Of a stretch of DNA of 45,055 nucleotides, positions 6,396-44,973 are shown piece after piece. Position numbers and translations under genes: made by a program. This stretch comes from Gemmataceae bacterium. GTDB lineage: Bacteria > Planctomycetota > Planctomycetia > Gemmatales > Gemmataceae. Where the stretch lies: contig JANPKP010000593.1 of the NCBI GenBank assembly GCA_031426095.1, positions 1 to 45,055 of the forward strand, in the 5' to 3' direction. The notes below the pieces were generated by a model, which ran no database searches, was not told where the DNA came from, and was given only the letters and a program-made list of their open reading frames with translations. Each line of letters begins with the position of its first letter. Within the stretch, counting starts at the first letter, position 1.

Positions 6396-6419
6396 CACAC
6401 CCTTCACGCGGAGGCGTCC

Positions 6420-7889
6420 GTGGGCGAAACTTCACTCCCGTCCCTGCCCGACACCGACCCCCGGTACATCAACGCCGACATGGCCCCGGTCCCCCTCGCG
6501 GGCCGCAAGTGGGGCGTCCGCGACATGGCCGCCCTGTGGGTGTCGATGGCCGCGTGCATCCCCACGTACTTCAGCGCGTCGTCGCTCATCGCCGGCGGCA
6601 TGAGCTGGTGGCAGGCCGTCCTCACCATCTTCGCGGCGAACGTCATCATCCTCGTGCCGATGATCGTCAACGCCCACGCCGGGACCAAGTACGGCATCCC
6701 GTTCCCGGTCTACTGCCGGGCCGCGTTCGGGCTCCGCGGGGCGAACGTGCCGGCCCTCGTGCGGGCCTTCGTGGCATGCGGGTGGTTCGGCATCCAGACG
6801 TGGATCGGCGGCACCGCCGTCCACACCATCCTCGCCGTGTTCGCGCCAGATGTCCTGGCCCAGCCGAAGCTCGACGTCCTCGACATCACGGCCGCCGAAC
6901 TCGGCTGCTTCCTCGTGTTCTGGGCGGTCAACGTCTTCGTCATCGTCCGCGGCATCGAGTCGATCCGCATCTTGCTGAACATCAAGGCCCCGCTCCTGAT
7001 CGCCCTCGGGCTGCTGCTCCTGGCGTGGGCGTACTCGGCGGCCGGCGGCTTCGGGGAGGCGCTGAGCCGGCCGTCGACGCTCGGCCCCGACAAGTTCTGG
7101 CTCGCGTTCGCCGCGGGGCTGACGGCCAACGTGAGCTTCTGGGCCACCCTGTCACTGAACATCCCCGACTTCTCGCGGTACGCCCGCACCCAGCGGGACC
7201 AGGTCGTCGGGCAGGCGGCCGGGCTGCCGACCACGATGGCCCTGTACGCCTTCATCGGCGTCGCCGTCACGTCGGCCGCGTACATCATTTACCCGAACGC
7301 CGACCAGAAGAAGTTGTGGGACCCGATCTACCTGCTCAACCAGTTCGACAACAAGACGGCCCTCGTATTCTCCATGCTGGCGATCTGCCTGGCGACGCTG
7401 GCGACGAACATCGCGGCGAACGTGGTCAGCCCGGCGAACGACTTCGCCCACCTGTGGCCGCGGCGGATCGGCTTCCGCGCCGGCGGCGTCATCACGGCCG
7501 TCCTCGGCGTCCTCATCATGCCGTGGAAGCTCCTGGCCCTGCCGGGCGACTACATCATCGTCTGGCTCGTCGGCGTGTCGGTGCTGCTCGGGTCCGTCGG
7601 GGGCGTGCTGGCGGCCGACTACGTGGTCGTGCGGCGGGCGCGGCTCCACCTCGCCGGCCTTTACCGCCGCGAAGGCCCGTACTGGTACGGCAATGGGTCT
7701 AACCCGGTAGCCCTGGTGGCGATGGCGGTCGGCATCGCCCCGTGCGTGCCGGGGTTTCTGGAGGTGATTAAACTCGTGGAGGTGGGCGACCCGTGGACGA
7801 CGATCTACAGCTATGCGTGGTTCGTGAGCTTCGGGCTGGCGTCCGCGGTGTATGTGGTGGGGATGGCAATGAGGAAGCGCCCCGTTTAG
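6420..7889 (+). CDS. NCS1-family nucleobase/hydantoin/allantoin:cation symporter
   Basis: 489 aa, GTG start, multi-TM. NCS1-type N-terminus DLAPVPxxxRxW-like (NADMAPVPLAGRKWGVRDMAALWVSM). Confidence 0.85.
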   Translation: MGETSLPSLPDTDPRYINADMAPVPLAGRKWGVRDMAALWVSMAACIPTYFSASSLIAGGMSWWQAVLTIFAANVIILVPMIVNAHAGTKYGIPFPVYCRAAFGLRGANVPALVRAFVACGWFGIQTWIGGTAVHTILAVFAPDVLAQPKLDVLDITAAELGCFLVFWAVNVFVIVRGIESIRILLNIKAPLLIALGLLLLAWAYSAAGGFGEALSRPSTLGPDKFWLAFAAGLTANVSFWATLSLNIPDFSRYARTQRDQVVGQAAGLPTTMALYAFIGVAVTSAAYIIYPNADQKKLWDPIYLLNQFDNKTALVFSMLAICLATLATNIAANVVSPANDFAHLWPRRIGFRAGGVITAVLGVLIMPWKLLALPGDYIIVWLVGVSVLLGSVGGVLAADYVVVRRARLHLAGLYRREGPYWYGNGSNPVALVAMAVGIAPCVPGFLEVIKLVEVGDPWTTIYSYAWFVSFGLASAVYVVGMAMRKRPV

Positions 7890-7940
7890 TGACGCGACCG
7901 GCGGTCTCATCTGGCGACCGCCGGTCGCGGCGCTAAACGG
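7882..7940. repeat. Family-2 palindromic element (full copy); likely bidirectional terminator between permease and mmsA
   Basis: CCGTTTAGtgacGCGACCGGCGGTCtcatctggcGACCGCCGGTCGCggcgCTAAACGG. Perfect 13-bp inner stem (7894-7906/7916-7928) plus 8-bp outer stem. The permease TAG (7887-7889) lies in the left arm. Confidence 0.85.
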
Positions 7941-7950
7941 CATTCTGCAC

Positions 7951-9465
7951 TCACACCTTGCCCGTCTTCCAAATCGGGTCGTGCGACGACTCCCCGGCCG
8001 AGGCGAACCACCGCGTCATCGTCACCTTGTGCCGGGTGTAGAACTGGACGCCTTCGAGCCCCTGGACGTGGAGGTCGCCGAAGAACGACTGGTTCCACCC
8101 GCTGAACGGGAACCACGCCATCGGGGCCGGGACGCCCACGTTGATGCCGATCATCCCGGCGTTGAAGTGCTGCTTGAACTGCCGGGCCGCGTACCCGCTG
8201 CTCGTGAAGATCGACGCCCCGTTGCCGTAGGGCGAGTCGCGGCCGATGGCGAGCGCCTCGTCCAGGTCGCCGGCCCGCACCACGGAGAGAACGGGGCCGA
8301 AGATTTCGTCGCGGGCCACCCGCATCCCGGGGGCCACCTGATCCAGCACGCTCGGGCCGATGTGGAAGCCGTCGCCCTTCATGGCCGAGCGGCCGTCGAG
8401 GGCCACCGTCGCCCCCTCCTTCGCCCCGATGTCGAGATAGCTCGCCACCCGGTCGCGGTGTTCCCGGCTGATCACCGGCCCCATGTCCACGGCCGCCCCG
8501 GTGTCGGTCGGGCCGACCGTCATCTTGCCGGCCCGCTCGCACAGCAACTCCACGAGCGGGGCCGCAATCTTGCCCACCGGCACGGCCACGCTCCCGGCCA
8601 TGCACCGCTCGCCGGCACAGCCGAAGGCGGCAGCCTGGATCGCCTTCGCGGCCTGTTCGAGGTCGGCGTCGGGCATCACGATGAGGTGGTACTTCGCCCC
8701 GCCGGCCGACTGCACCCGCTTCCCGTGCCTCGCCCCCGTCTCGTAAACGTACTTCGCCACCGCCGTCGAGCCGACGAACGAGATGGCCGCGACGAGGGGG
8801 TGCGTGAGCAGGGCGTCCACGCACTCCTTGTCGCCGTGGACGACGTTGAACACGCCCGCCGGCAGCCCACACTCGGCGAGCAACTCGGCGAGCCGCACGG
8901 CCGACAGCGGCACCTTCTCCGACGGCTTCAGGATAAAGGTGTTCCCGCAGGCGATGGCCACCGGGAACATCCAGAGCGGCACCATCGCCGGGAAGTTGAA
9001 CGGCGTGATACCGACGCACACGCCGACCGGGTGGCGGACAGCCTCGCTATCCACGTTCGTGGCGATGTTCGGCAGCACCTGCCCCATGAGCAGGCTCGGG
9101 ATGCCGCACGCGAACTCCACGACCTCAATGCCGCGTTGGACCGACGCCCGGGCCTCGGGGAGCGTCTTGCCGTGTTCGCGGGTCACGAGGCGGGCCAACT
9201 CTTCGGCGTGGGCTTCGAGCTTGTCGCGGTAGCGGAACAGGACGCGGGCGCGTTCCACGGCCGGCGTCTCGGCCCACGCCGGGAGGGCGGCGGCGGCGGC
9301 CTTCACCACCTCGTCCACCTCGGCGGCCGTGCAGAGCGGGACGCGGGCGATTTCGCGGCCGGTGGACGGGTTGAACACGGCCCCGGTGCGGGTCGAGGAA
9401 CTCTCCCGCCACGTCCCGGCGACGAACAGAGGGACGGTCGGCGTGGCGGTGTCGGCGGCGGGCAT
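7951..9465 (-). CDS. mmsA: CoA-acylating methylmalonate/malonate-semialdehyde dehydrogenase
   Basis: ORF trimmed to the ATG at 9463-9465 (MPAADTATPTVPLFVAG...), 504 aa. ALDH fold with FGCAGERCMA catalytic Cys block and the MMSDH-typical C-terminus. Confidence 0.9.
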   Translation of the reverse strand: MPAADTATPTVPLFVAGTWRESSSTRTGAVFNPSTGREIARVPLCTAAEVDEVVKAAAAALPAWAETPAVERARVLFRYRDKLEAHAEELARLVTREHGKTLPEARASVQRGIEVVEFACGIPSLLMGQVLPNIATNVDSEAVRHPVGVCVGITPFNFPAMVPLWMFPVAIACGNTFILKPSEKVPLSAVRLAELLAECGLPAGVFNVVHGDKECVDALLTHPLVAAISFVGSTAVAKYVYETGARHGKRVQSAGGAKYHLIVMPDADLEQAAKAIQAAAFGCAGERCMAGSVAVPVGKIAAPLVELLCERAGKMTVGPTDTGAAVDMGPVISREHRDRVASYLDIGAKEGATVALDGRSAMKGDGFHIGPSVLDQVAPGMRVARDEIFGPVLSVVRAGDLDEALAIGRDSPYGNGASIFTSSGYAARQFKQHFNAGMIGINVGVPAPMAWFPFSGWNQSFFGDLHVQGLEGVQFYTRHKVTMTRWFASAGESSHDPIWKTGKV

Positions 9466-9510
9466 GGGGTGGCTCCCGGAGAGGTGACGGGGACAGTGTA
9501 GCGGGGCCAC

Positions 9511-9538
9511 TTGCCCCCGCCCACGGCCCTGCTATGAT
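9511..9538 (+). promoter_or_regulatory. Putative sigma70-like promoter (TTGCCC-16 nt-TATGAT) for the beta-ureidopropionase/aminotransferase pair
   Basis: Hexamers at 9511-9516 and 9533-9538. Followed by a C9 tract (9550-9558) and AGGAG (9572-9576) before the ATG at 9583. Confidence 0.3.
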
Positions 9539-9582
9539 CGACACTTCCTCCCCCCCCCACGCCCGAACACCAGGAGTCCGCC

Positions 9583-10452
9583 ATGCCGCGCGTCGTGCGG
9601 GGGGGCTTGATCCAGGCCACGCTCTGCGAGCCGGTCACGTCGCCCCTCGAGAAGGTCAAGCGGGCGATGGTCGACAAGCACGTCGCCCTCGTCACCGAGG
9701 CCGCCGGCCGCGGGGCCCAGGTCATCTGCCTCCAGGAACTCTTCTACGGCCCGTACTTCTGCGCCGAGCAGGAGAGCAAGTGGTACGACCTCACCGAGAA
9801 GGTGCCGGACGGGCCGACGACGAAGCTGTTCGCCGCCCTGGCCAAGAAGCTCGGCGTGGTGCTGGTGCTGCCGGTGTACGAGGAGGAGAACACGGGGGTG
9901 TACTACAACACCGCGGCCGTGATCGACGCCGACGGCACCTTTAAGGGCAAGTTCCGCAAGATCCACATCCCGCAGTGCGCCCCCGGGTTCTTCGAGAAGT
10001 TCTACTTCCGGCCCGGGAACATGGGCTACCCGGTGTTCGACACGGCCGTCGGTAAGGTCGGCGTCTACATCTGCTACGACCGCCACTTCCCCGAGGGGGC
10101 CCGGGCGCTGGGCCTCAACGGGGCCGAGGTCGTGTTCAACCCGTCGGCCACGGTGGCGGGGCTGAGCGAGTACCTGTGGAAGATCGAGCAACCGGCCCAC
10201 GCGGTGGCGAACGCCTATTTCGTGGGGGCGATCAACCGCCCGGGGTGGGAGGAGCCGTGGCGGATCGGCGAGTTCTACGGCCAGAGCTACTTCTGCGACC
10301 CGCGGGGCAAGATGCTCGCCGTCGGCAAGCGGGACGCCGACGACATCGTGATCGCCGACATGGACCTCGACCTGATCCGCGAGGTGCGGAACGTCTGGCA
10401 GTTCTACCGCGACCGCCGGCCGGAAACTTATGGGGCGCTGACCGCACCATGA
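9583..10452 (+). CDS. Beta-ureidopropionase / N-carbamoyl-beta-alanine amidohydrolase (nitrilase/CN-hydrolase superfamily)
   Basis: 289 aa. Glu-Lys-Cys triad contexts CLQELF, KFRKIHIP, VYICYDRHFPE. AGGAG SD 7 nt upstream. Confidence 0.85.
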   Translation: MPRVVRGGLIQATLCEPVTSPLEKVKRAMVDKHVALVTEAAGRGAQVICLQELFYGPYFCAEQESKWYDLTEKVPDGPTTKLFAALAKKLGVVLVLPVYEEENTGVYYNTAAVIDADGTFKGKFRKIHIPQCAPGFFEKFYFRPGNMGYPVFDTAVGKVGVYICYDRHFPEGARALGLNGAEVVFNPSATVAGLSEYLWKIEQPAHAVANAYFVGAINRPGWEEPWRIGEFYGQSYFCDPRGKMLAVGKRDADDIVIADMDLDLIREVRNVWQFYRDRRPETYGALTAP

Positions 10453-10526: not shown

Positions 10527-11900
10527 ATGTCCACCGCCGCCCCGGCTCTCAAGCGCACCCCCCTTCCGATGGCCCCGCACACGCCGCAGCCTTACGACGG
10601 CCCTTCGAAGGCCGAGGTGATCGCCCTCCGCCAGCAGTACCTCTCACCCGGCCTCGTGACGTACTACAAGAACCCGCTGCTGATCGTCGAAGGGAAGATG
10701 CAGTACCTGTGGGACGAGACGGGGAAGCAGTACCTCGACGCCTTCGCCGGGATCGTCACCGTGTCCGTCGGCCACGCCCACCCTTACGTCCTGGACAAGG
10801 TCACGAAGCAGCTCGGCACGCTCCAGCACGCTACCACGATCTATCTGCACCCGACCGTCGGCCAGCTCGGCAAGAAGCTCGCGGACAAGATGCCGGCCGG
10901 GAGCGGGTTGAGCATGAGCTACTTCACCAACAGCGGCAGCGAGGCGAACGAGGTCGCCGTCCTCTCGGCCCGCGAGTTTACGAAGAACAGCGAGGTCATC
11001 AGTGTTCGCAACGGCTACCACGGCGGCACGTCGCTCCCGATGGGGCTGACGGCCCACGGCAACTGGAAGTTCAAGTCGAACGCCACCGTCAACGTCAAGC
11101 ACGCGACGCCGGGCTACTGCTACCGCTGCCCGTTCGGGCTGGAGTACCCGAGCTGCGAACTGAAGTGCGCCACCGATACGGAAGACCTCATCAAGTACGA
11201 GACCTCGGGCGAGATCGCGGCGTTCATCGGCGAGCCGATCCAGGGCGTGGGCGGCACGGTGACGCCGCCGAAGGAGTACTTCAAGATCGTGTACGACATC
11301 GTCCGCAAGCACGGCGGGCTGTGCATCGCCGACGAGGTGCAGACGGCGTTCGGCCGGACCGGCGACCACTACTGGGGGTTCCAGAACTACGGCGTCGTGC
11401 CCGACATGGTGACGATGGCGAAGGGCCTCGGGAACGGCGTCCCCATCGGGGCGATGACGACGCGGCCGGAGATCGCCGCGATGATGAAGAACCGCGTCCA
11501 CTTCAACACCTTCGGCGGCAACCCGATCAGCGTGACGCAGGGGCTGGCGACGCTCGACGTGATCGACGCCGACGGCATCCAGGCGAACGCCAAGGCGGTC
11601 GGCGGGCACCTGAAGGGCCGGTTGATGGAGCTTCAGGACAAGCACGCCCTCATCGGCGAGGTCCGCGGAATGGGTTTGATGCTCGGCGTCGAGTTGGTCC
11701 GCGACCGCGCCTCGAAGGAGCCGGGGAACACGGAGGCGGCGGCGGTCCTGGAGTTGTGCAAGGAGCGTGGCCTGATCCTCGGCAAGGGCGGCCTCTTCGG
11801 CAACACCTTCCGCATCAAGCCGCCCATGTGCGTCACGAAGACGGACGCCGACTTCCTGGTGGACACGGTCGTTGAGGTTCTGGAGATCGTGGGGACGTAA
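10527..11900 (+). CDS. Class-III PLP aminotransferase (AGXT2-like beta-alanine/3-aminoisobutyrate:pyruvate type)
   Basis: ORF 10176..11900 trimmed to the ATG at 10527 (MSTAAPALKRTPL...), 457 aa. Has SGSEANE, DEVQTAFGRTG and PLP-Lys block MAKGLGNG. Confidence 0.85.
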   Translation: MSTAAPALKRTPLPMAPHTPQPYDGPSKAEVIALRQQYLSPGLVTYYKNPLLIVEGKMQYLWDETGKQYLDAFAGIVTVSVGHAHPYVLDKVTKQLGTLQHATTIYLHPTVGQLGKKLADKMPAGSGLSMSYFTNSGSEANEVAVLSAREFTKNSEVISVRNGYHGGTSLPMGLTAHGNWKFKSNATVNVKHATPGYCYRCPFGLEYPSCELKCATDTEDLIKYETSGEIAAFIGEPIQGVGGTVTPPKEYFKIVYDIVRKHGGLCIADEVQTAFGRTGDHYWGFQNYGVVPDMVTMAKGLGNGVPIGAMTTRPEIAAMMKNRVHFNTFGGNPISVTQGLATLDVIDADGIQANAKAVGGHLKGRLMELQDKHALIGEVRGMGLMLGVELVRDRASKEPGNTEAAAVLELCKERGLILGKGGLFGNTFRIKPPMCVTKTDADFLVDTVVEVLEIVGT

Positions 11901-13340: not shown

Positions 13341-13359
13341 GATGATGATCCAAGCAGGA

Positions 13360-13482
13360 GAATTAACCACCGGGTCACAGAGAACACCGAGCCGAGCCGA
13401 ACACGAGAGCAGAACAAAAATTGTGTTCTGAATTCTCGTGTGTTTCTTCCCTCGGTGTCCTCGGTGACTCGGTGGTTAATTC
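13360..13482. repeat. Family-1 ~122-nt palindromic intergenic element, copy 1
   Basis: Arms GAATTAACCACCGGGTCACAGAGAACACCGAG / CTCGGTGTCCTCGGTGACTCGGTGGTTAATTC (29/32 complementary). Inner stems ACACGAGA/TCTCGTGT and CAGAACA/TGTTCTG. Visibly less GC-rich than the flanks. Confidence 0.9.
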
Positions 13483-14810: not shown

Positions 14811-14830
14811 TGTGTCGCTCCTATTGAAGA

Positions 14831-14952
14831 GAATTAACCACCGAGTCACCGAGAACACAGAGAGGGAAATACGCGAGAAGATCGAACCACCAGATTTATT
14901 CTTCTCAGTGTTTGGCTCGGCTCGGTGTTCTCTGTGACTCTGTGATTAATTT
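14831..14952. repeat. Family-1 palindromic element, copy 2 (internal part inverted relative to copy 1)
   Basis: GAATTAACCACCGAGTCACCGAGAACAC ... GTGTTCTCTGTGACTCTGTGATTAATTTC. The CACCGAGCCGAGCC(G/A)AACAC block is on the opposite side compared with copy 1. Confidence 0.9.
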
Positions 14953-35702: not shown

Positions 35703-35712
35703 GAATGAAAGC

Positions 35713-35833
35713 GAATTCACCACGGAGTCACAGAGAACACCGAGGGCGGAAACACGAGAGTCGGAAAGAACGGGATTCTTCTTCTCGGTGTTCGGCTCGG
35801 CTCCGTGTCCTCTGTGACTCCGTGGTTCAATTT
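35713..35833. repeat. Family-1 palindromic element, copy 3 (ctaB/SCO1 spacer, overlaps the SCO1 5' end)
   Basis: GAATTCACCACGGAGTCACAGAGAACACCGAG ... GTGTCCTCTGTGACTCCGTGGTTCAATTTC. Same orientation as copy 2. Confidence 0.9.
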
Positions 35834-36481
35834 CTCCTCTTTCTCTCGCTCCTCATCACCGGCTGCGGGCGGCCCGCCCCGACGCCCCACGCCCCCCCGC
35901 CGCGGGCCGAAGCCCCCGACCTCGACTACCCCGTCGGCACGTTCTCGCTCACGGAGCGGAGCGGGAAGACGGTCACGGACGCCGACCTCAAGGGGAAGGT
36001 GTGGGTGGCGTCGTTCGTGTTCACCCGCTGCACCGCCGGGTGCCCGCAGGTGGCCGCCACCGTCGCCAGGCTGCAAACCGAGTTCGCCGCCGAGCCCGAC
36101 GTGCGGCTCGTCACCTTTACCGTCGATCCGGCGCGAGACGATAAGGCCGAGTTGCAGAAGTACGCCACGCACTTCCACGCCGACCCCGCCCGCTGGCTGT
36201 TCCTGACCGGCGACGAGAAGGCGGTCCACACCCTCCTCGAACAACAGTTCAAACAGGGCGTGGGCGAACGCCCCGGGCCGGGGGTGAAGGCGGGCACCGA
36301 GTTCGCCCAGCACAGCACCAAGCTGGCGGTGGTGGACCGCAAAGGGGTGGTCCGCGGCATCTACGACGGCATCCGGGGCGATTCCCCGCCGGACGCCGAC
36401 GCCGGTTACGCCGACGAGCGATACGCGGACGCCTACCGCCGGCTGACGGCAAAGGTGAAGGCGCTGCTCCGGGAGCCGTGA
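35822..36481 (+). CDS. SCO1/SenC-family copper chaperone lipoprotein (paralog 2)
   Basis: CTAGCP CxxxC motif, downstream His (AQHSTK), lipobox LITGC. The only in-frame starts are GTG 35822 (inside the repeat arm) or ATG 35705 (reads through the whole repeat), so the start is uncertain. Confidence 0.75.
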
Positions 36482-36783: not shown

Positions 36784-36828
36784 GACGCGGGCCGGGCGGC
36801 GGGAACATCTCGTCGCCCGGCCCGCGTC
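36784..36828. terminator. 15-bp perfect GC hairpin at the convergent DUF1328/kinase junction
   Basis: GACGCGGGCCGGGCG-loop-CGCCCGGCCCGCGTC (extendable to 18 bp with a G-U pair). Overlaps the kinase TGA (36827-36829). Confidence 0.65.
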
Positions 36829-39800
36829 ATTTCGGGGCGGCCGCATCGCCGTCCCACTCGACCTTGCACTTCGGCCACGCGGCTCGGAGCCGCTTCACCC
36901 CGTCGGCCGTCACCTTCGTGCCTTTGAGGACGAGTCGCTTCGGCCCGGACGTCTTGGCCAGGGCGTCGACCCCGCCATCCCCGAACGGGCCGCCCTCGAC
37001 CTCCAAGACGGACAGCGTCGGGATGGCGGCCGCCGCCGCGACCCCGGCCTCGGGGTATTTGCACTTGTAAAGACCGAGGTGGATCAGCCGGGGGGACCGG
37101 CCGAGGGCCGTCAGGGCGTCGGCGTCCAGGTCGCACTCGTACAGGTTGAGGCGTTCGGTCAGTGTCGGCATGGCGGCGATCCGCGAGCCAGCCGCCGCGT
37201 CCAGCCCCTTGCAGCGCACCAGGGTGAGGCTCTGGAGGGAGAGGCCGGTGATAGCCCCCCAACCGGCTTCGCTGCCGATCATGTTCTCGATCTTCAAGTT
37301 CGTCGTGGTCGTCAGTTCCCCGAGCCGCGCGACGTCGGCCGCGCCGGCCCGACCGACCCGAAGGGTGAGTTCCGTGAGTTTCGGGAACGTCTTGAGGGCG
37401 TCGATCGTCGTGCCGGTCAGGGGGACGGGGCTGACCAATTTCACCAGCGTGTCGCGGCACGGGGCCGCGGCCAGCCGGGCCACGGCCGCCTCCGAAAACG
37501 CCAGGTTGGCGAACGGGTCGTAGACCGCTTCGAGCCCGGCGAGGGGGGCGACGGCCGGGACCAGGACGTCGTCCACGAACCCCTTTGGCGGGCTCGGCTT
37601 GGCCCGCGACAGAGCCGTCAGGGTGAACGGCCCGGCCGGGAGCGAGTCGCCAGACTTGACCGAGACGGATACCCCGGACGGCAACCGGACGCCGATCGAC
37701 TCGAAGTGCGGCAGCAGGGCCTCGGCCGCGGTGCGGTCGGGGTCAGCTTTCGGCTTCGCGTCGTACTCCTTCCAGAACTCGGCCGCCGGCTTCTGTCCGA
37801 TCGTCTTCAAAGACTTCGATTGCTTTAACGCCTTCTCGTCCTCGGCCGGGATGGTAAGGGCGCCCGCGACGGCGATCTCTTGAATGGTGTCCGCGAAGAA
37901 CCGCAGCCCGCGCACGTTGATGCAATACACCCACGTCAGGGGCGCACCCTTGAGTGGTTCGAGGTCTATCGAGTGTTGTACCGCGACCCCCAAGCGGGTG
38001 AGTGGCATCCCGCGGAGGGGGGACAAGTCTTTCACCTTCGTGACGGTGAGAAAGACGTGTTCCAACTCTTGCCCGGCCAGTGGGGAGAGGTCCGTCACGT
38101 CGGTGTAGCTCAGGTTGAGTTGCTTCAACCGAACGCCCTGGAGCGGGGTGAGGTCCGCAACGGGGTTGTTTGATACATTCAGATGCCAGAGTTTTCCGAG
38201 GCCGGCGAGCAGTCGGAGGTCGCGGAGTATGCCGCGTTCGGTAGGCGAGCGGCCCCAGGCGTGCAACTTCTCCAACTCGGGGAACGCCGCGAGCGGGGAC
38301 AGGTCGGCGACATTGGACGTATCGACTTTGACGACGAGAACCGTCCCGTCCGCGTGCCGCTTTTCGACCGTCAAGGCCGACTCGGACCCCGGGTTGCGGC
38401 GGACGAACTCGGCCGCGACCTCCTTCTCCTGCGCGTCCGGCGTCATCGCCCGCACCTTTGCCACCCACGCCGGGTCGAGCGGGGGCAGGGCGGGCGGCCT
38501 CGCGGCGTCGAACTCCTTCCAGAACTCGGCCGCCGTTTTGCCGTTGAGCCTCTTGAGCCCCTTGAGGCCGCGAACCAAGGCGGGGTCGGCGAGCGCCTCG
38601 GCCGGGACGTGGAGATCGTAAAGCTCGTCCATCCCACGTAGTACGTCCAGCCGGGTGACGGGGTTGCCGCTCACATAAAGGGCCCACATCCTTTTCCCTG
38701 CCAGCGGCGACAGGTCGGTGATTCGGTTGTTGAACGCATACAGCCGCCCGACCGGCATGGACTTGAGCGGTCGGAGGTCGGCCACCCGATTGTTCGGCAC
38801 CTCGACCCCATCGATCGGTAACCCGACGAGCGGCGACAGGTCGGCGAGGATGCCCTGCTTGCCGGCCGGTGGGAAGCAATCCAGTCTGAGGAGATTCGGA
38901 AACCCCTGGAGGGGGGAGAGGTCCGCGACCGAGTCGGACACGATCGTGACGTGGCCCTGGAAGTCGTTGGGCTTGAGGGGGTGGGGCGTGAACTTAATCG
39001 CACCGTCGTACCCCGGGTTGCGCCGCTTCAACTCGGCCACCACTTCCGCGGCCCGGGCGTCCGGCGTCATCACCCTCACCTTCGCCACCCAAGCCGGGTC
39101 GAGCGGGGGGAACGGCGACGGCGGGCGGGTGAGGGTGCCCGTGCCCGTGACTTCCGTCACCGCGAGCGAGTGGAGGACCGTGCCCGAGTCTTTGAGGCTG
39201 ACCCCGACGAGCGGTTCCGGGCGCGGGTCGTTCGCCTTACTCACTTGGGCCGATGTCCCCCGCCATGCGGTCACGACCCGGCCGTTCCACTCGGCCTCCA
39301 CGCCGCCCTTGCGGATCCGGACGACGACCCGATGCCGGCCGCGCGTCGACTTGTCCAAGTCGGCCGCGCCGGACCAGTCGGGGGACGACGGCCCCTTCCC
39401 ACCGATGGTCGTGAACCCCATCCGCCCAGTACTCGGGCGAATCATCCAGGTGAGTGGGCGGCCGTCCCATGCGAATTCGAGGGCGTAGTCCCCGCCGTCG
39501 GGCGGGAGGGTGAACTCGGCCGCCACGTCGTACTCGGCGGGCGGGGCGTAGGGGGCCAGGATCATCGACCGGGGGTCCGAGGACTTGTCCGGCGGGGTTC
39601 CGGCCAGTCCTAACGACCCCTTGGCCCAGATCCCGGAGACCGCGTCCTTGTCCGGGTCGATGAGCGGCAGCAGGTCGATCGTCACCGGCTTCGCCGGAAT
39701 CGCCGCCACCCCCTTCGGGTCCACCGTCGCCACCGGCTTGCCGTCCTTCTCGACCACCACCGTTGTGCCGTCGGGCACCGTGATGACCGTCTCCTTGCCG

Positions 39801-41173
39801 TCCTTGTCGCGGAGTTTGACCACGATCACCGCCCCCACCCCGGCCGCGAACAGGCCGAGCAGCCCGGCGGCGGCGATGAGGAGCTTCGACACGGGCTTAC
39901 GGCGGGCGGCGGCCGGCTTCGGCGACGGGACCGAAGCCGGTGCGGGCGTCGGGTCGACCGGGGGCGTGGTGAGGAGCGTCGGCGTCAGGCCGCTCTCGGC
40001 GGGCGGGCGGGCCGACTCCGGGAGGACCATCGGCCGGCTCAGGCTGGCGGCAGCCGGCGGCCGCGGCACCGGGATCGGCTGGCTGCCCGACAGCCCGGGG
40101 GCGGCGGACGCCTTCAGCTTCTTCTCGATGGCGAGGAGTTCGGCCAGCGCCGCCTTCGCGTTCGCCGGCCGGCCGTCGCGGTCCTTCGCCAGCAACCGGG
40201 CCACGAACGCCGCCAGGTCGGCTGGGAATGCCGGGTGGGCGGCGTCGAGCGGCGGGGGTACGTCCACGGCCAGCGACGTGAGGGTGCCCATGACCGTGTC
40301 GCGGGCGAACGGGCTCTGGCCGGCCACCATGCGATAAAGCACGACGCCGACGCTGAACAGATCGGCCCGGCCGTCCACCTTGCCGCCGTTGGCCTGCTCC
40401 GGCGACATGTACGACGGGGTGCCGACGACCGCCCCGTCGCGGGTGAACTGGTCGTTCCCGTCGGCCCCGCGGGTCAGCCCGAAGTCGAGCACCTTCACCC
40501 GCCCGGTCGGCCGCTCCAGCCACAGGTTCGACGGCTTGATGTCGCGGTGGACGAGGCCCTTGTCGTGGGCCGCCGCCAGCCCCCGGAGGGTGTCGCGGGC
40601 CACCTTCGCCACGACCGTGGGCGTGGCCGGGCCGGGGCGGGCCTTGAGCCAGTCGTCGAGCGTCGCCCCTTCGAGGTACTCCATCGCCAGGAACGGGACG
40701 CCGTTCGCCTCGCCGACCTGGTAGATGGTGGTGACGTGGTCGCTCTTGAGTGCGGCGGCCGCCCGCCCCTCGCGGAGGAAGCGTTCGGCCGCGAGCGGGC
40801 CGGCGGCGACCTCGGGCCGCATCACCTTGAGGGCGACCGGGCGGCGGAGGGCGTCGTCCTCGGCCCGGAAGACGAACCCCATGCCGCCCTCGCCGAGCAG
40901 CCGGACGACGCGGTACGGGCCGAGCATCCCGAGGGCGTCGGGGTCGTCCGACGGGGCGAGGAAGGCGTACCCCGGGCCGGTGACGAACGTCCGCGACGGC
41001 GGGTCGTGCGGCGGGGGCGGCGGGGTGCCGCCGTCGCCCTGGGTGAACGTCTCGTCCCGTCCGGCGCTGTGGACCGGGGCGGGGGTGGGCTTGGGTCGTT
41101 CGGGCATGCCGGCGTCCGGGCGTGGGCGGGGTCTTGGCGGCCCCATTATGCCCGCCGCCCGGGGCCGACGCAA
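36827..41173 (-). CDS. Giant transmembrane Ser/Thr protein kinase with leucine-rich-repeat ectodomain
   Basis: Up to 1448 aa (alternative ATGs at 41146 and 41107). Hanks kinase at about 40136-40915 (GEGGMGFV, ALK, HRDIKPSNL, DFG, GTPSYMSPE). TM at about 39818-39883. C-terminal DLSPL-type LRR blocks. Confidence 0.9.
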   Translation of the reverse strand: MRRPRAAGIMGPPRPRPRPDAGMPERPKPTPAPVHSAGRDETFTQGDGGTPPPPPHDPPSRTFVTGPGYAFLAPSDDPDALGMLGPYRVVRLLGEGGMGFVFRAEDDALRRPVALKVMRPEVAAGPLAAERFLREGRAAAALKSDHVTTIYQVGEANGVPFLAMEYLEGATLDDWLKARPGPATPTVVAKVARDTLRGLAAAHDKGLVHRDIKPSNLWLERPTGRVKVLDFGLTRGADGNDQFTRDGAVVGTPSYMSPEQANGGKVDGRADLFSVGVVLYRMVAGQSPFARDTVMGTLTSLAVDVPPPLDAAHPAFPADLAAFVARLLAKDRDGRPANAKAALAELLAIEKKLKASAAPGLSGSQPIPVPRPPAAASLSRPMVLPESARPPAESGLTPTLLTTPPVDPTPAPASVPSPKPAAARRKPVSKLLIAAAGLLGLFAAGVGAVIVVKLRDKDGKETVITVPDGTTVVVEKDGKPVATVDPKGVAAIPAKPVTIDLLPLIDPDKDAVSGIWAKGSLGLAGTPPDKSSDPRSMILAPYAPPAEYDVAAEFTLPPDGGDYALEFAWDGRPLTWMIRPSTGRMGFTTIGGKGPSSPDWSGAADLDKSTRGRHRVVVRIRKGGVEAEWNGRVVTAWRGTSAQVSKANDPRPEPLVGVSLKDSGTVLHSLAVTEVTGTGTLTRPPSPFPPLDPAWVAKVRVMTPDARAAEVVAELKRRNPGYDGAIKFTPHPLKPNDFQGHVTIVSDSVADLSPLQGFPNLLRLDCFPPAGKQGILADLSPLVGLPIDGVEVPNNRVADLRPLKSMPVGRLYAFNNRITDLSPLAGKRMWALYVSGNPVTRLDVLRGMDELYDLHVPAEALADPALVRGLKGLKRLNGKTAAEFWKEFDAARPPALPPLDPAWVAKVRAMTPDAQEKEVAAEFVRRNPGSESALTVEKRHADGTVLVVKVDTSNVADLSPLAAFPELEKLHAWGRSPTERGILRDLRLLAGLGKLWHLNVSNNPVADLTPLQGVRLKQLNLSYTDVTDLSPLAGQELEHVFLTVTKVKDLSPLRGMPLTRLGVAVQHSIDLEPLKGAPLTWVYCINVRGLRFFADTIQEIAVAGALTIPAEDEKALKQSKSLKTIGQKPAAEFWKEYDAKPKADPDRTAAEALLPHFESIGVRLPSGVSVSVKSGDSLPAGPFTLTALSRAKPSPPKGFVDDVLVPAVAPLAGLEAVYDPFANLAFSEAAVARLAAAPCRDTLVKLVSPVPLTGTTIDALKTFPKLTELTLRVGRAGAADVARLGELTTTTNLKIENMIGSEAGWGAITGLSLQSLTLVRCKGLDAAAGSRIAAMPTLTERLNLYECDLDADALTALGRSPRLIHLGLYKCKYPEAGVAAAAAIPTLSVLEVEGGPFGDGGVDALAKTSGPKRLVLKGTKVTADGVKRLRAAWPKCKVEWDGDAAAPK
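38391..38485. repeat. Intragenic 95-nt duplication within the kinase ectodomain (partner at 39015-39109)
   Basis: 77/95 identical by hand alignment. Encodes PPLDPAWVAKVR(A/V)MTPDA...RRNPG modules. Confidence 0.85.
39015..39109. repeat. Intragenic 95-nt duplication, second copy
   Basis: See 38391-38485. A further shared motif TCCTTCCAGAACTCGGCCGCC (AAEFWKE) occurs near 37769 and 38512. Confidence 0.85.
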
Positions 41174-41185
41174 CCGGCCGTTGGG

Positions 41186-41995
41186 CTATTCCCCGCAGCA
41201 CGGGCAGACTTCCGGCACCAGCACCGTGAGGGTGGCCGAGTACGCCACGGCGTCGTACCCCTTGGCCCCCGCCTCGGCCGGCACCTTGTGGCGGGCGACC
41301 GCGAGGTGGTACGTCCCCACCTTCGGGGTGTAGCTCGCCCGCCCGTCGGCGTCGGTCGTCCGCTCGAAGTCGGGGTCGGTCCCCTCCTTGAGCGTGGTGC
41401 CCCGGGGGACGAAGCTGACCTTCGCCCCGGCCAGCGGCTTGCCCCGGAAGAGCAGCCGGACCTTGAGCGCGACCCCCGGCCCCATCGGGGCGACCGGGCT
41501 GGCCTCGGGCACCAGCTCCAGGGCGTGGCCGAGCGGCTTGTCGAACCCGGGGGCGTCCTTCGCCACCTTGTCGAGCGTCGGGGTGGCGAGGAAGTACGCC
41601 TTCGCCCCCTTCACCGAGCGGACCGGGCCGGCCCCGTGGTTGACGACCCGGTCGGAGGTCTGCGAGACGACGTAGAGCCCGGCCGCCGCGGGCACGAACC
41701 GGGCCGAGTGGAACCCCTCCTTCGGGGCGTACCCGAGGTCGACCAACTCGGGCTTGAGGTCGTACACCTTGCCGCCGGGGGCGACGACCTCGAAGGCCGT
41801 CACCCCGGCCGGGTCGAGCTTGCCCGCCAGCTTGAAGTCGCGGTGGTCGTTCCCGTGGTTGCCGAGCATGAGGTCGACGTGGACGGCGTCCCCGGTGCGG
41901 ACGACGGCGGCGTTCGTCTGCACCCAGGTGTCGTGGGCCGGGGCGGGGGCGGCCAGGAGCAGGGCGGCCGCGAGGGCCGGGACGGTGCGGGTCAT
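41186..41995 (-). CDS. DUF4198-family secreted protein (NikK/CbiK-like Ni/Co-uptake-associated fold) with C-terminal CPCC tail
   Basis: 269 aa. Signal peptide ending APAPA/HDTWV (family-typical N-terminal His after cleavage). Transthyretin-like KVRLLFRGKPLAGAKVSF...TDADGRASY. Ends VPEVCPCCGE. Confidence 0.8.
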   Translation of the reverse strand: MTRTVPALAAALLLAAPAPAHDTWVQTNAAVVRTGDAVHVDLMLGNHGNDHRDFKLAGKLDPAGVTAFEVVAPGGKVYDLKPELVDLGYAPKEGFHSARFVPAAAGLYVVSQTSDRVVNHGAGPVRSVKGAKAYFLATPTLDKVAKDAPGFDKPLGHALELVPEASPVAPMGPGVALKVRLLFRGKPLAGAKVSFVPRGTTLKEGTDPDFERTTDADGRASYTPKVGTYHLAVARHKVPAEAGAKGYDAVAYSATLTVLVPEVCPCCGE

Positions 41996-42035
41996 GACGG
42001 AATCTCCGGGTGTGGTTGTGTGTCGGGCCTGGGGG

Positions 42036-43115
42036 TCAATACTCGCCGGGGCCTTCGCCCCCGTCGCGGGTGGCCGCGGCGAGCCACGCCTGGGGCTCGA
42101 CGGCGTCGCGGACGAACCGGACGGACCCGTCGCCGAACGCGGCGTTCACCCCGCCGGCGTGGTTGCTCCGGGCGGCGAACCATCCCCGCCCGTGGGCCCC
42201 GCAGTCGGGGGCCGGGTCGTTCGGCCGGAGGGTCGTGTTGAACACGCTGTTCCAGTCCCGCCCGCCCCAGAACCAGGTGCTGCCCCGCATCACCCCCCAC
42301 GCCCGGCCGGCGTCGTCGCACTCCGGCGGGCGGGCGGTCACGACCGCCCCGCCCTTGAGCCACCCGCCCGGGGGCGTGCCGTTGGACGCGAACGTGCCGG
42401 TGTTGAGCGAGGCGTAGTACCGGCCGGCGGTGCCCGGCGGGGTGCCCCCCGCGGCCGGGGCGGTCCCCCCCGGGCCGAGCAGGCACTCGGACGCGAGCAG
42501 GGTGTTCGACGCCCCGTCCGTCATGTCCTTGAACTTCGTCCGGGAGCCGTACCAGAACATCCCGTCGGTCGGGAACTGGGCGTCGTAGTAGGCGGCCGCC
42601 GCGGTCGCCCGCCCGGACCCCATGTTCACCACGTAGTTCGTCCCGGCCGTCTTGAACTCGTTAGGCGTGCGGGCCGTGCTCGTCCGGGTGAACACCGGCG
42701 ACTGCCCGTCGCTCGGGCACAGGTAGACCGACACGACCGCCCCGGCGGCCGCGTCGTGGACCGGGTTGATCGTCCCCCTGAAGCCGTCGACCGACGCGGG
42801 CTGGCTGAAGTCGATCAGCTTCTGCAGATTGGCCTGCTCGATGAACGGCAGGACGTTGGCCAGGACGCCGAACGCGTAGCTCGCGTTGACCGACCCGTTC
42901 GGGGCCCCGTCGGCCAGCCCGGGGAGGTACCCCTTGCCGCTCTCGTGGTTGTGGAGCCCGAGGGCGACCTGCTTGAGGTTGTTCGCGCACTTCATCCGGG
43001 CGGCCGCCTCGCGGACCTTCTGGACCGCGGGCAGCAGCAGCCCGATCAGCACGGCGACGATGGCGATGACGACCAGTAACTCGATGAGCGTGAACGCGCG
43101 GCGGTGGCGGCGCAT
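42036..43115 (-). CDS. HX9DG / DUF1559 protein with prepilin-type N-terminal cleavage/methylation signal
   Basis: 359 aa. RRAFTLIELLVVIAIVAVLIGLLLPAVQKVREAAARMKC. C-terminal HAGGVNAAFGDG (H-X9-DG). Confidence 0.9.
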   Translation of the reverse strand: MRRHRRAFTLIELLVVIAIVAVLIGLLLPAVQKVREAAARMKCANNLKQVALGLHNHESGKGYLPGLADGAPNGSVNASYAFGVLANVLPFIEQANLQKLIDFSQPASVDGFRGTINPVHDAAAGAVVSVYLCPSDGQSPVFTRTSTARTPNEFKTAGTNYVVNMGSGRATAAAAYYDAQFPTDGMFWYGSRTKFKDMTDGASNTLLASECLLGPGGTAPAAGGTPPGTAGRYYASLNTGTFASNGTPPGGWLKGGAVVTARPPECDDAGRAWGVMRGSTWFWGGRDWNSVFNTTLRPNDPAPDCGAHGRGWFAARSNHAGGVNAAFGDGSVRFVRDAVEPQAWLAAATRDGGEGPGEY

Positions 43116-43218
43116 GGTGAGAGGTTCCCCTGTGCGAGGCGTGTGCGGGCGGAAGCGGCGGGCGCACGACTGGCGCGCGGCGGCCGGAACGGTGTCGATG
43201 GGGGCGGCTCAACGCACT

Positions 43219-43268
43219 CCGTTTAGCGAAGCGACCGGCGGCCGCGCGAACGCCAAATGGGGCTAACG
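43219..43268. repeat. Family-2 palindromic element, degenerate copy (between the Cys-rich ORF and the DUF1559 gene)
   Basis: CCGTTTAGCGAAGCGACCGGCGGCC matches the 7882 copy at 22/25 positions. Right side is degenerate (..GCTAACGAG). Confidence 0.7.
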
Positions 43269-43278
43269 AGAACCCGCG

Positions 43279-43884
43279 TTAGAAGTGCGACGCGGCCCGC
43301 GGGGGCGGCGACTCGGGGACATCGACCGGGGAAGTGAACCGGACCTCGGCGGCAACAGCGTGGACCGCCGGCGCGAACTCGGCGTCCGCCCGCACGGGCT
43401 CCACCGGCGGGGCGGACGGCTCCTCGGCGACGACGCCGAGCGGCCCTTGACCGCGGCACGGGCGGGCGTTCGCGGCCAGCACCCACGTCACCGTCGGGCC
43501 GTCCTGCGCTTCGGCCGCCGCCGGGGCGGGCGTCGCCTTGTCCTTGCACTTGGGGCACGCGGCCGGGTCGGGCGGCGTGGCGTCCGGCCCGCAGCAGCAG
43601 ATGCCCGTCGGCCGGCCGCACGCCCCGCCCCCGGGCGCGGGGGTCGGTTTCGGGACGGGCTTGGTCGCACACGCCCCGCCGGCGGCCGGGTCGCAGCGGC
43701 ACCCCTCGGCGGCCATCGCCCCGCAGCCGCACACGCCGCCGCCGCACCCGACCCCCGTGGCCCCGGCCGCCCGCACCTGGGGGAAACCGATTGCGCTCAC
43801 GACGTGGGCCAGCACCAGGGCGAACGCGACCGCCCCGCGGAGCGAGCCGAGGCGGGTCGGTCGGCGGTGGCGGCGGAAACGCAT
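43279..43884 (-). CDS. Hypothetical Cys-rich membrane-anchored protein
   Basis: 201 aa. Basic N-terminus plus TM (AVAFALVLAHVVSAIGF). 13 Cys, 12 of them in residues 47-113 (GCGGGVCGCG, GCRC, ICCCG, CPKC). Third-codon positions are nearly all G/C in this frame. No family recognised. Confidence 0.55.
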   Translation of the reverse strand: MRFRRHRRPTRLGSLRGAVAFALVLAHVVSAIGFPQVRAAGATGVGCGGGVCGCGAMAAEGCRCDPAAGGACATKPVPKPTPAPGGGACGRPTGICCCGPDATPPDPAACPKCKDKATPAPAAAEAQDGPTVTWVLAANARPCRGQGPLGVVAEEPSAPPVEPVRADAEFAPAVHAVAAEVRFTSPVDVPESPPPRAASHF

Positions 43885-43962
43885 GGGTGGAGCGATCGGA
43901 CGCGGGGGCGGAGGAGAACGTCACACTAACCCGCGCCCGGCACGCGGGCAAGGGTCCGATCT

Positions 43963-44019
43963 CCGTTTAACGCGGCGACCAACGGTCGCCACTTGCGAGC
44001 GCGGGCCGCCGCGCTAACC
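43963..44019. repeat. Family-2 palindromic element copy (between the SMP-30-like gene and the Cys-rich ORF)
   Basis: CCGTTTAACGCGGCGACCAACGGTC matches the 7882 copy at 19/25. Inner hairpin GGCGACCaacGGTCGCC. The right arm GCGCTAACC contains the TAG stop (44014-44016) of the SMP-30-like gene. Confidence 0.7.
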
Positions 44020-44973
44020 AAACCGCACCACCTCCTGCACGGGGCACGCCTCCATGTCCGTGTCGGCGATGAACAAATCCCCCGACGCCGGGCAGGCGGC
44101 GAAGTCGGCGGCCGGCATCCCCTCGGTCGCCGTCGTGAGGACGAGCTTCACCCCGTCCGGCCGCTTCAGCAACAGCGGGCACGTCACCCGCGGGGCCCCC
44201 GGCGTCGTCCACTCCTCGACGGCCGCCCCCGTGGCGAGGTCGTACCGCACCGCCCGCCCGGCCGGCTTGATGGCGGGGTCGTAGAAGGCGACGATTGCGG
44301 TGCCGTTGCCGCCGTCCCGCATCCCGTCGGGGAACGCCGCCTCGCCCTTCAAGTCGATGGCGACCCCGTCGGGCGTCGCCGCCCGGGCGGCCACGTCGAG
44401 CCGGTAGCGGGCCACCGTCTTCGTCGGCGTGTCGATGTCGAACAGTACCAACCCCTTCGCATCGCGGGCGAACACCTTGCCGTTCGAGCAGACCTGCCCG
44501 TCCCGCAGCACGCTGATCTTCGCGTCGTCCACGGTGAACAAATACAGGTGGGCGATCGGCCCCTCGAACTTCGTGTCCTTGGTGCCGAACACGACCGCCT
44601 TGCCGCCGGGCACCACGTCGCCGTCGTTGATGATCGTCCGCGGACTGTCGTCCGGAATCGCGGCGAGCGGCACGAACTCGTTGGTCTCCAAATCGAGGGT
44701 GCCGACCTCCTTGCCCATGCCGACGAGCAGGACGCCCGGCCGGTCGGTGGGGGCGATGAACCCGGGCCGGCTCGGCAGGTTGTGGACGGCCAGCTCCCCG
44801 TCGTCCCAGAAGCGGAGATGGACGGCCCCGCGGGTGGCGTCGGCGGCCGTCTGAATGTTCACCCACGCCACGGCATCCCGCCCGCCCACGGTAACGGCCC
44901 GCGGCCCCTCGGGGAGGAAGCGGTCCTCGTCGTCGTCGGCCGTCACGAACGGGCGGGCGGGGGTCGAGCGCAT
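44014..44973 (-). CDS. SMP-30/gluconolactonase/LRE-like beta-propeller protein
   Basis: ORF 44014..45021 (GTG start). ATG at 44971-44973 preferred (MRSTPARPFVTADDDEDRFLPEGPR...), 319 aa. SGL-type blocks INDGDVVPGGK, SNG, PDGMRDG. Confidence 0.75.
   Translation of the reverse strand: MRSTPARPFVTADDDEDRFLPEGPRAVTVGGRDAVAWVNIQTAADATRGAVHLRFWDDGELAVHNLPSRPGFIAPTDRPGVLLVGMGKEVGTLDLETNEFVPLAAIPDDSPRTIINDGDVVPGGKAVVFGTKDTKFEGPIAHLYLFTVDDAKISVLRDGQVCSNGKVFARDAKGLVLFDIDTPTKTVARYRLDVAARAATPDGVAIDLKGEAAFPDGMRDGGNGTAIVAFYDPAIKPAGRAVRYDLATGAAVEEWTTPGAPRVTCPLLLKRPDGVKLVLTTATEGMPAADFAACPASGDLFIADTDMEACPVQEVVRFG

Follow-up and report, generated by a model that had tools for sequence, protein, structure and literature searches.

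The window analysed here, the whole 45,055-nucleotide (nt) stretch of contig JANPKP010000593.1 from a Gemmataceae bacterium (assembly GCA_031426095.1), to which all coordinates refer, contains three tandem open reading frames (ORFs) within positions 41186-43884, all on the minus strand. They encode a Cys-rich membrane protein, a prepilin-type DUF1559 protein and a secreted DUF4198 protein, and are referred to below as genes C, P and D, respectively. We find that the region holds one copy of a cassette that is conserved across the Planctomycetota; in Gemmatales, Pirellulales and Planctomycetales, genes of the three families lie side by side in the same orientation. The function of the cassette is most likely the capture and hand-off of a transition metal (Ni/Co, Zn or Cu) outside the cytoplasm. 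The receptor-like kinase encoded next to it is a chance neighbour in this genome and lies outside the conserved cassette. Taken as a whole, a conserved C-P-D cassette that acts as a metal relay, with support from redoxins and with the kinase placed beside it by chance, is the best explanation we can offer, and one that we hold with a little more confidence than doubt. An earlier note, made from the letters of the window, had described three co-oriented genes ahead of a giant kinase and had read them as a metal capture or sensing unit that feeds this kinase. The ORFs and their common strand are confirmed; of the reading itself, the conserved co-oriented module, the conserved Cys residues and the metal-binding DUF4198 family have held, and the coupling to the kinase has not.

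Orthologs of D were located at 234 loci in species-representative genomes, and 80 of these loci, spanning Gemmatales, Pirellulales, Planctomycetales, Isosphaerales and Tepidisphaeraceae, were analysed together with up to 10 kb of flanking sequence on either side. In 59 of the 80 loci, D has a DUF1559 gene in the same orientation no more than 600 bp away (upstream in 42, downstream in 14 and on both sides in 3), as against the roughly 2% expected from the density of DUF1559 genes in the other 0.8 Mb of flank. The full trio was assessed in the 55 loci that extend at least 3 kb upstream and at least 1.5 kb downstream of D; C, P and D are co-oriented within 4.5 kb in 38 of them. Neighbourhood statistics were the check that the earlier note had proposed for its module, and these figures support the module. 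The gene orders in the 38 loci are CPD (17), CDP (8), CPDP (6), PCPD (5), PCDP (1) and pCDP (1). That is, C stands ahead of its partner P and of D in all 38 cases, and six of these loci have a further DUF1559 copy upstream of C. Gene C heads the unit, often behind a sigma-70-like promoter of its own, and P and D follow in either order.

In a reverse test, the starting point was the Cys-rich proteins, with independent gene calls and precomputed Pfam assignments. Three of the cases inspected (P0124, P0141 and P0150) show C, then a gene with N_methyl and SBP_bac_10 domains, then a DUF4198 gene. Two others (P0162 and P0138) show C and then a prepilin gene, after which the contig ends, and in P0135 C is followed by a gene for a small secreted beta-sandwich/transmembrane protein and then by a redoxin gene. 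Clusters of DUF1501, sulfatase and kinase genes, present in 7-13 loci, were also considered as members of the cassette and rejected; they belong to abundant planctomycete families and occur in mixed orientation. Three contigs with the cassette are labelled as Alcaligenaceae, Acidimicrobiaceae and Opitutaceae metagenome-assembled genomes (L006, L018 and L067, respectively), but their DUF1559 content makes mis-binning of planctomycete contigs the probable explanation.

Gene D matches PF10670 with 95.3 bits (cut-off 34) over residues 18-236, which corresponds to profile positions 1-207 of 209. A signal peptide is predicted, from the -3/-1 rule, to end at APA↓H21, so that the mature protein would begin with HDTW. 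Further along, D contains His39 (mature His19), a GNHGNDH loop, H120 and H157, and its C-terminus reads VPEVCPCCGE. More than 1500 database proteins match D. The best 120 of these, about 267 residues long and 61-75% identical to D, all have a signal peptide with the junction [A/G]↓H[D/E]xW; His is found at mature position 19 in 112, the GNHGNDH loop in 114 and a CxCC tail in 119. Of the terminal CPCCGE, to which the earlier note had drawn attention, the CxCC part is thus kept by nearly all of the closest relatives of D. Two observations on related sequences may be added. Locus L012 has a second, strongly diverged DUF4198-like gene (9041-9892, minus strand), divergently oriented beside a D of the CxCC type, in a locus that has no DUF1559 gene; in locus L020, a CPCC-tail-like fragment lies at 11225-11293, outside any ORF of 80 or more residues.

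The AlphaFold2 model of mature D has a predicted local distance difference test score (pLDDT) of 93.7 and a predicted template-modelling score (pTM) of 0.91. In a Foldseek search with this model, the best match in the PDB is Zcp (E = 2e-16, TM-score 0.70-0.78), and Ni-bound IsDUF4198 (9GCB) is found with E = 5e-12 and TM-scores of 0.58/0.67; the remaining PDB matches have TM-scores of at most 0.3, with the next one at 0.25. As modelled, D is predicted to have the beta-sandwich fold of the solved Zn- and Ni-binding DUF4198 proteins. In addition, His1 and His19 of D appear, from the sequence, to match the Ni-binding 'histidine brace' residues His1 and His18 of IsDUF4198.

Both of these reference proteins were characterised in 2025 (PMC12663993, PMC12537917). 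Zcp (NGO1049) from Neisseria gonorrhoeae, the first DUF4198 protein to be characterised (PDB 9MHI-9MHO), forms homodimers in the periplasm and binds Zn, as well as Cu, Co and Ni, via three His residues; it buffers or captures the metal and does not import it, and its relatives have His-rich C-terminal tails near the pocket (PMC12663993). IsDUF4198 from Ideonella sakaiensis binds Ni with a Kd of 18 nM, and its ligands are His18 and the His at the N-terminus (PMC12537917). The association of DUF4198 with metals that the earlier note had invoked is now an experimental fact for the family (Zn for Zcp, PMC12663993; Ni for IsDUF4198, PMC12537917). Neither paper mentions Planctomycetes, pilins, DUF1559 or a thiolate tail (PMC12663993, PMC12537917).

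Protein D has PF10670 and its fold in common with Zcp, and both are secreted, soluble proteins of about 270 residues. However, they are only 21-23% identical, and the His29/His31/His142 triad of Zcp is not recognisably conserved in D, whose N-terminal domain cannot be aligned to Zcp by sequence and has no HxH at its N-terminus. The Zcp gene is also monocistronic and Zur-regulated, and it has neither a CxCC tail nor a DUF1559 or Cys-rich partner. The likeness to IsDUF4198 lies in the N-terminal His that follows signal cleavage, in the second His (His18 there, His19 in D) and in the predicted fold. In contrast, IsDUF4198 is 22% identical to D, has no Cys tail, and is found in a proteobacterial context with TonB receptors and NikR. 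The DUF4198 family is already known; what appears, from the sequences, to be new in the cassette is the variant with a CxCC tail, the obligate-looking link of this variant to a subfamily of DUF1559, and the Cys-rich family. None of these three was found in the searchable literature, where the closest remark is that signal-peptide genes often flank DUF1559 genes (PMC8567305).

The C family was uncovered by all-versus-all clustering of the ORFs in the flanks, as a co-oriented family ahead of the P/D pair. A search with the single sequence of C yields one homolog and a word-indexed profile search yields six, probably because low-complexity words saturate the candidates. Canonical members are about 200-230 residues long. 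They have a basic N-terminus and one transmembrane helix (..LAYLhAAhGhPLP), followed by the motif KDxSxPFPCQxHxCGCxxAExCWxxCCCFTxxEKLAWA and a variable CC-rich linker; the distal part consists of a VxWVxGxxAx[KR]CxG motif and a C-terminal PPxPPPR tail. A hidden Markov model (HMM) of the family has matches in 55 of the 80 D loci, and when 1.84 billion cluster representatives are searched exhaustively with it, 284 C-family clusters are found at E ≤ 1e-3. Among the best 150 representatives, 142 contain CxC...CC(C) and 128 have a PPPR-like C-terminus.

Gene C of the window matches this HMM with E = 3.2e-24. Its product has a basic N-terminus, one transmembrane helix at about residues 17-35 and then a Cys-rich region that is predicted to be extracytoplasmic. 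The Cys residues are at positions 47, 52, 54, 62, 64, 72, 89, 96, 97, 98, 110, 113 and 143; the 12 that had been counted in residues 47-113 are confirmed, and residue 143 adds a thirteenth. The protein keeps the transmembrane helix, the CGC and CCC clusters, VTWVLAANARPCRGQG and an ESPPPRA tail, and it carries a VTWV..ARPCRGQG motif. Seven Cys (C47, C52, C62, C64, C110, C113 and C143) are invariant among its eight closest homologs, and seven are invariant across 39 members of the family; with the 38 others, the protein has C52, C54, C64, C72, C97, C143 and the PPP tail in common. The earlier note had made much depend on whether the Cys positions are conserved in homologs, and the key ones are. 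Gene C is a divergent, Gemmataceae-type member of a family for which no model exists.

Protein P matches PF07596 (DUF1559/SBP_bac_10; 2.6e-54, 185.5 bits), PF07963 (N_methyl; 33.2 bits) and TIGR04294 (HX9DG; 37.5 bits), in agreement with the HX9DG pseudopilin-like identity given to it before. It has the motif H319-x9-D329-G330, a class III signal (RRA↓FTLIELLVV) with Glu5, and a long N-terminal helix; residue -1 is Ala, where Gly is usual. The protein was also considered as a type II pseudopilin or type IV pilin proper (GspG, PilA, ComGC), and this was rejected, as the NCBIfam matches reach 20-30 bits against cut-offs of 75-400 and cover residues 4-66 only. Profile matches to the PDB are confined to the pilin N-terminal helix, which is also the only confident part of a single-sequence structure prediction (pLDDT 36.9). 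P is the sole DUF1559 gene in the window. By its N_methyl signal, Glu5 and H-x9-DG it is a full member of the DUF1559 family, from which it differs in belonging to a distinct subfamily tied to DUF4198 and to the Cys-rich gene. That is, DUF1559 proteins encoded next to D score a median of 232 bits against each other versus 119 bits against paralogs that are not adjacent to D, and they therefore form a dedicated subfamily.

DUF1559 proteins occur as tens to about 100 paralogs per genome and have been detected in membrane fractions (PMC8567305, PMC10632474). Tuwongella immobilis has 91 copies (PMC8567305) and Planctopirus limnophila has 68, of which two are essential (PMC10632474); frequent neighbours of DUF1559 genes are genes for proteins with a type I or type II signal peptide (PMC8567305). 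Our literature search turned up no function for any member of the family. In three loci, small lipoproteins of about 145-165 residues follow generic DUF1559 paralogs that are not linked to DUF4198 (L065:17263-17757, minus strand; L028:15504-15971; L062:2457-2891), and these lipoproteins contain a 'V.G.V..NG.P..G..V.F' beta-sandwich motif. They were considered as homologs of the DUF4198 C-terminal region. Their matches to this region or to CarboxypepD_reg have E values of 0.002-0.08, and hhalign gives a probability of 46% over 28 columns against the DUF4198 C-terminal domain. With scores below threshold, the homology is no more than a lead; it hints that DUF1559 proteins may pair in general with beta-sandwich partners.

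In the mechanism that we propose, D would capture an extracytoplasmic transition metal at a site that combines His and thiolate ligands. A His brace of the IsDUF4198 type, together with N/S-type ligation, would favour Ni or Co, with Zn and Cu also possible. The metal would then be exchanged, in either direction, between D and the Cys-rich ectodomain that C presents at the inner membrane. P, held by its pilin helix, would serve as the scaffold or adaptor that joins C and D, and thioredoxin-like redoxins encoded beside the cassette would keep the thiols reduced. Periplasmic metal handling by Cys residues, together with reductants of the TlpA type, is found in the copper chaperones ScoI and PCuAC and in the Csp copper storage proteins. 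By analogy only, the cassette resembles these systems in pairing extracytoplasmic thiolate-rich proteins with a membrane-anchored thioredoxin-like reductant, and in having a membrane-tethered component that may exchange metal with a soluble chaperone. It differs in gene C; neither this gene nor the canonical members of its family match any Pfam or NCBIfam model.

Genes for redoxins recur in the neighbourhood. A co-oriented gene for a membrane-anchored AhpC/TSA-Redoxin (TlpA-like) protein is found in 8 of the 80 loci. In three loci where D is alone, this gene precedes D by 62-64 nt; in L089 and L090 it immediately precedes C, and in L085 it is found near C. The loci in which a redoxin stands beside C or D include some without a DUF1559 partner. 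Coordinates were recorded for L016 (7079-7897), L031 (4217-5050), L038 (9022-9942), L042 (8667-9452), L089 (4105-4938) and L085 (6475-7263). In locus L064, a PepSY_TM gene (5587-6987; PF03929, 2.2e-41) lies between P and D. PepSY_TM often accompanies DUF4198 and metal-uptake genes in Proteobacteria.

Several results weigh against this mechanism. D is alone in 12 of the 55 evaluable loci, and can therefore work without adjacent C and P. Protein C of the window has lost most of the canonical PFPCQxHxCGC..CW..CCCF..EKLAWA motif, and Cys-rich domains outside the cytoplasm are often disulfide-bonded instead of metal-binding. When D is aligned by sequence to Zcp and IsDUF4198, the N-terminal half goes undetected and only the C-terminal domain aligns (E = 1e-5). 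Finally, neither a transporter gene nor a regulator box responsive to metals was found within the cassette or beside it, and inspection by eye of the region upstream of C in 41 loci revealed no shared palindrome of the Zur, Fur or NikR kind.

In an alternative, the trio traffics no metal and belongs to the general DUF1559 system as a structural or adaptor unit. Each DUF1559 pseudopilin would pair with a secreted beta-sandwich protein, D being one of these, and the Cys residues of C and D would form disulfides, possibly as intermolecular tethers. The extracytoplasmic compartment is oxidising, and the redoxin neighbours are equally suited to disulfide isomerisation. The frequent flanking of DUF1559 genes by signal-peptide genes (PMC8567305) also agrees with it, as do the lipoproteins described above, which follow generic DUF1559 paralogs and weakly match the DUF4198 C-terminal region or CarboxypepD_reg. 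However, the similarity between these lipoproteins and D is below threshold, and D has kept its metal-binding N-terminal domain in full, including His1, His19 and several more His residues that are invariant. Moreover, vicinal Cys in CC and CCC runs form disulfides poorly and are typical of metal sites, and the solved members of DUF4198 do bind metals (PMC12663993, PMC12537917). For these reasons we regard a purely structural role as fairly unlikely.

A different use of the thiols, namely detoxification of Cu(I), Cd or Hg, or a CxCC tail that acts as a swinging carrier arm as in SoxY, would replace the supply of a nutrient metal altogether. Thiolate-rich tails and CC/CCC runs favour soft metals, and TlpA-like redoxins do recur beside the cassette. 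On the other hand, the conserved neighbours include no efflux pump, MerR/CsoR-type regulator or sox gene, no sulfur-carrier protein is among the top 50 Foldseek matches of D, and the cassette promoter is apparently of a plain sigma-70 type. We consider this role distinctly improbable.

The ORF of the neighbouring kinase encodes 1448 residues, with a Pkinase domain at residues 87-339, a transmembrane segment and leucine-rich repeats (LRRs). The stop codon of D, TAG, is at 41188-41186. The spacing of 12 nt given in the earlier note holds for a possible TTG start at 41173; the first ATG, at 41146, is 39 nt away. Because there is no terminator between the two genes, the kinase may be co-transcribed with the cassette in this genome. 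A co-oriented kinase start within about 1.5 kb downstream of D is found in two of the 80 loci (L008 and L020), where the kinase density in the flanks predicts about one, and these two kinases match that of the window in the catalytic domain only (residues 71-348). Counted in any orientation, a kinase ORF lies within 5 kb in 13 loci, in line with the abundance of this family. In the closest syntenic locus (L001), which has SGL, C, P and D in common with the window, the kinase is convergent and non-orthologous. The downstream linkage is thus not conserved among the 80 loci, and the kinase is for this reason placed outside the conserved unit. The earlier model, in which the trio is a periplasmic unit that captures or senses metal and signals to the adjacent kinase, whose ectodomain with the LRRs would read its state, is the least supported of the rivals and highly improbable, since the common strand, the short spacing, the lack of a terminator-like site and the transmembrane segment with its large ectodomain are outweighed by these linkage data.

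The implications of the cassette concern all three families. In many planctomycete genomes no paralog family is larger than DUF1559, and the cassette ties a defined subfamily of it to the biochemically solved DUF4198 family and to a new family of Cys-rich membrane proteins. This gives one DUF1559 member a testable role, and with it a concrete foothold on the DUF1559 expansion; P. limnophila is amenable to genome-wide transposon mutagenesis (PMC10632474). The DUF4198 family is extended to a His-plus-thiolate variant outside Proteobacteria, and the gene C family, with at least 284 sequence clusters, is defined as a new protein family. A bolder form of the proposal is a pseudopilin-based transition-metal apparatus of Planctomycetota, in which a dedicated, pilin-like DUF1559 subunit couples a secreted His-brace/thiolate DUF4198 metallochaperone to a new Cys-rich inner-membrane protein. 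We think this rather unlikely; if true, it would be a pseudopilin route for metal relay or uptake without counterpart in model bacteria. Extended to the tens to hundreds of other DUF1559 paralogs, the proposal would make each of them the adaptor of its own secreted beta-sandwich protein.

The coordinates of the cassette, the kinase and the non-coding elements are collected in Table 1. A gene for an SMP-30/gluconolactonase (SGL) protein lies upstream of the trio, and the one terminator-like site in the region is inside the end of this gene. The candidate promoter of gene C was not recovered by a stricter consensus promoter scan, which found no promoter in the region. Among 41 related loci, an analogous motif, T[TC]GAC-N17-TAnnnT, is present upstream of C in 13, versus 0.4 in shuffled sequences.

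Table 1. Features in and around the C-P-D cassette, with their positions in the window
Feature	Coordinates	Strand	Evidence
Gene C: Cys-rich bitopic membrane protein, 201 aa	43279..43884	-	ORF, Cys positions, family HMM
Gene P: prepilin-type DUF1559/HX9DG protein, 359 aa	42036..43115	-	PF07596, PF07963, TIGR04294
Gene D: secreted DUF4198 protein, 269 aa, predicted metal-binding	41186..41995	-	PF10670, AlphaFold2, Foldseek
Receptor-like Ser/Thr kinase (kinase domain, transmembrane segment, LRR ectodomain)	36827..41173	-	Pfam Pkinase, LRR_4
Candidate sigma-70-type promoter: TTGCCC, 17 nt spacer, TAGTGT; ~40 nt upstream of the C ATG	43923..43951	-	inferred
Better-preserved copy of the palindrome, directly after the SGL stop	43950..44020	-	copy alignment, fold
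Decayed half of the REP-like palindrome in the C-P gap ('family-2 element'; core 43217-43236)	43200..43278	-	alignment

The window also contains a family of palindromes that resemble repetitive extragenic palindromic (REP) elements, with the sequence GTTTAGCGCCGCGACCGGCGGTCGC ... GCGACCGCCGGTCGCGnCGCTAAAC. Their core, GGTCGCnnCGyTAAACGGAG, occurs four times in the window versus 0.09 expected, so that the 'family-2 element' of the earlier note is real. A full copy at 7870-7950 forms a very stable hairpin (-50.6 kcal/mol, z = -5.8). The copy that follows the SGL stop folds with -37.1 kcal/mol (z = -2.8), and none of 200 shuffled sequences folds as well; this palindrome is probably where the cassette is bounded on its upstream side. 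In the 163-nt gap that separates C from P, the copy folds no better than shuffled sequence (z = -0.7). The earlier note had suggested that this element may split the transcription unit. Since the repeat is degenerate and its hairpin unexceptional, it constitutes weak evidence for such a split, and gaps of 100-200 nt downstream of C are typical of the other loci as well. The REP-like copies that flank gene C are progressively decayed.

A few further observations concern the surroundings. In locus L081 (9224-11140; also in L082), the cassette is directly followed by co-oriented genes for the Zn enzyme beta-carbonic anhydrase (Pro_CA), for a Cupin_2 protein and for a DUF2238 protein; the arrangement may be coincidental. 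The region that encodes the kinase ectodomain contains a 117-nt direct repeat (38382-38498 and 39006-39122; 79% identity), which corresponds to a duplicated 'PPLDPAWVAKVR.MTPDA...RRNPG' module before each LRR block. A second inverted-repeat element, relatively AT-rich and made up of GAGAATTAACCACCGGGTCACAGAGAACACCGAGCCGAGCCGAACAC and its complement, is present in three copies (13358-13482, 14829-14952 and 35711-35834), as near-palindromic pairs with arms that are 80-94% complementary.

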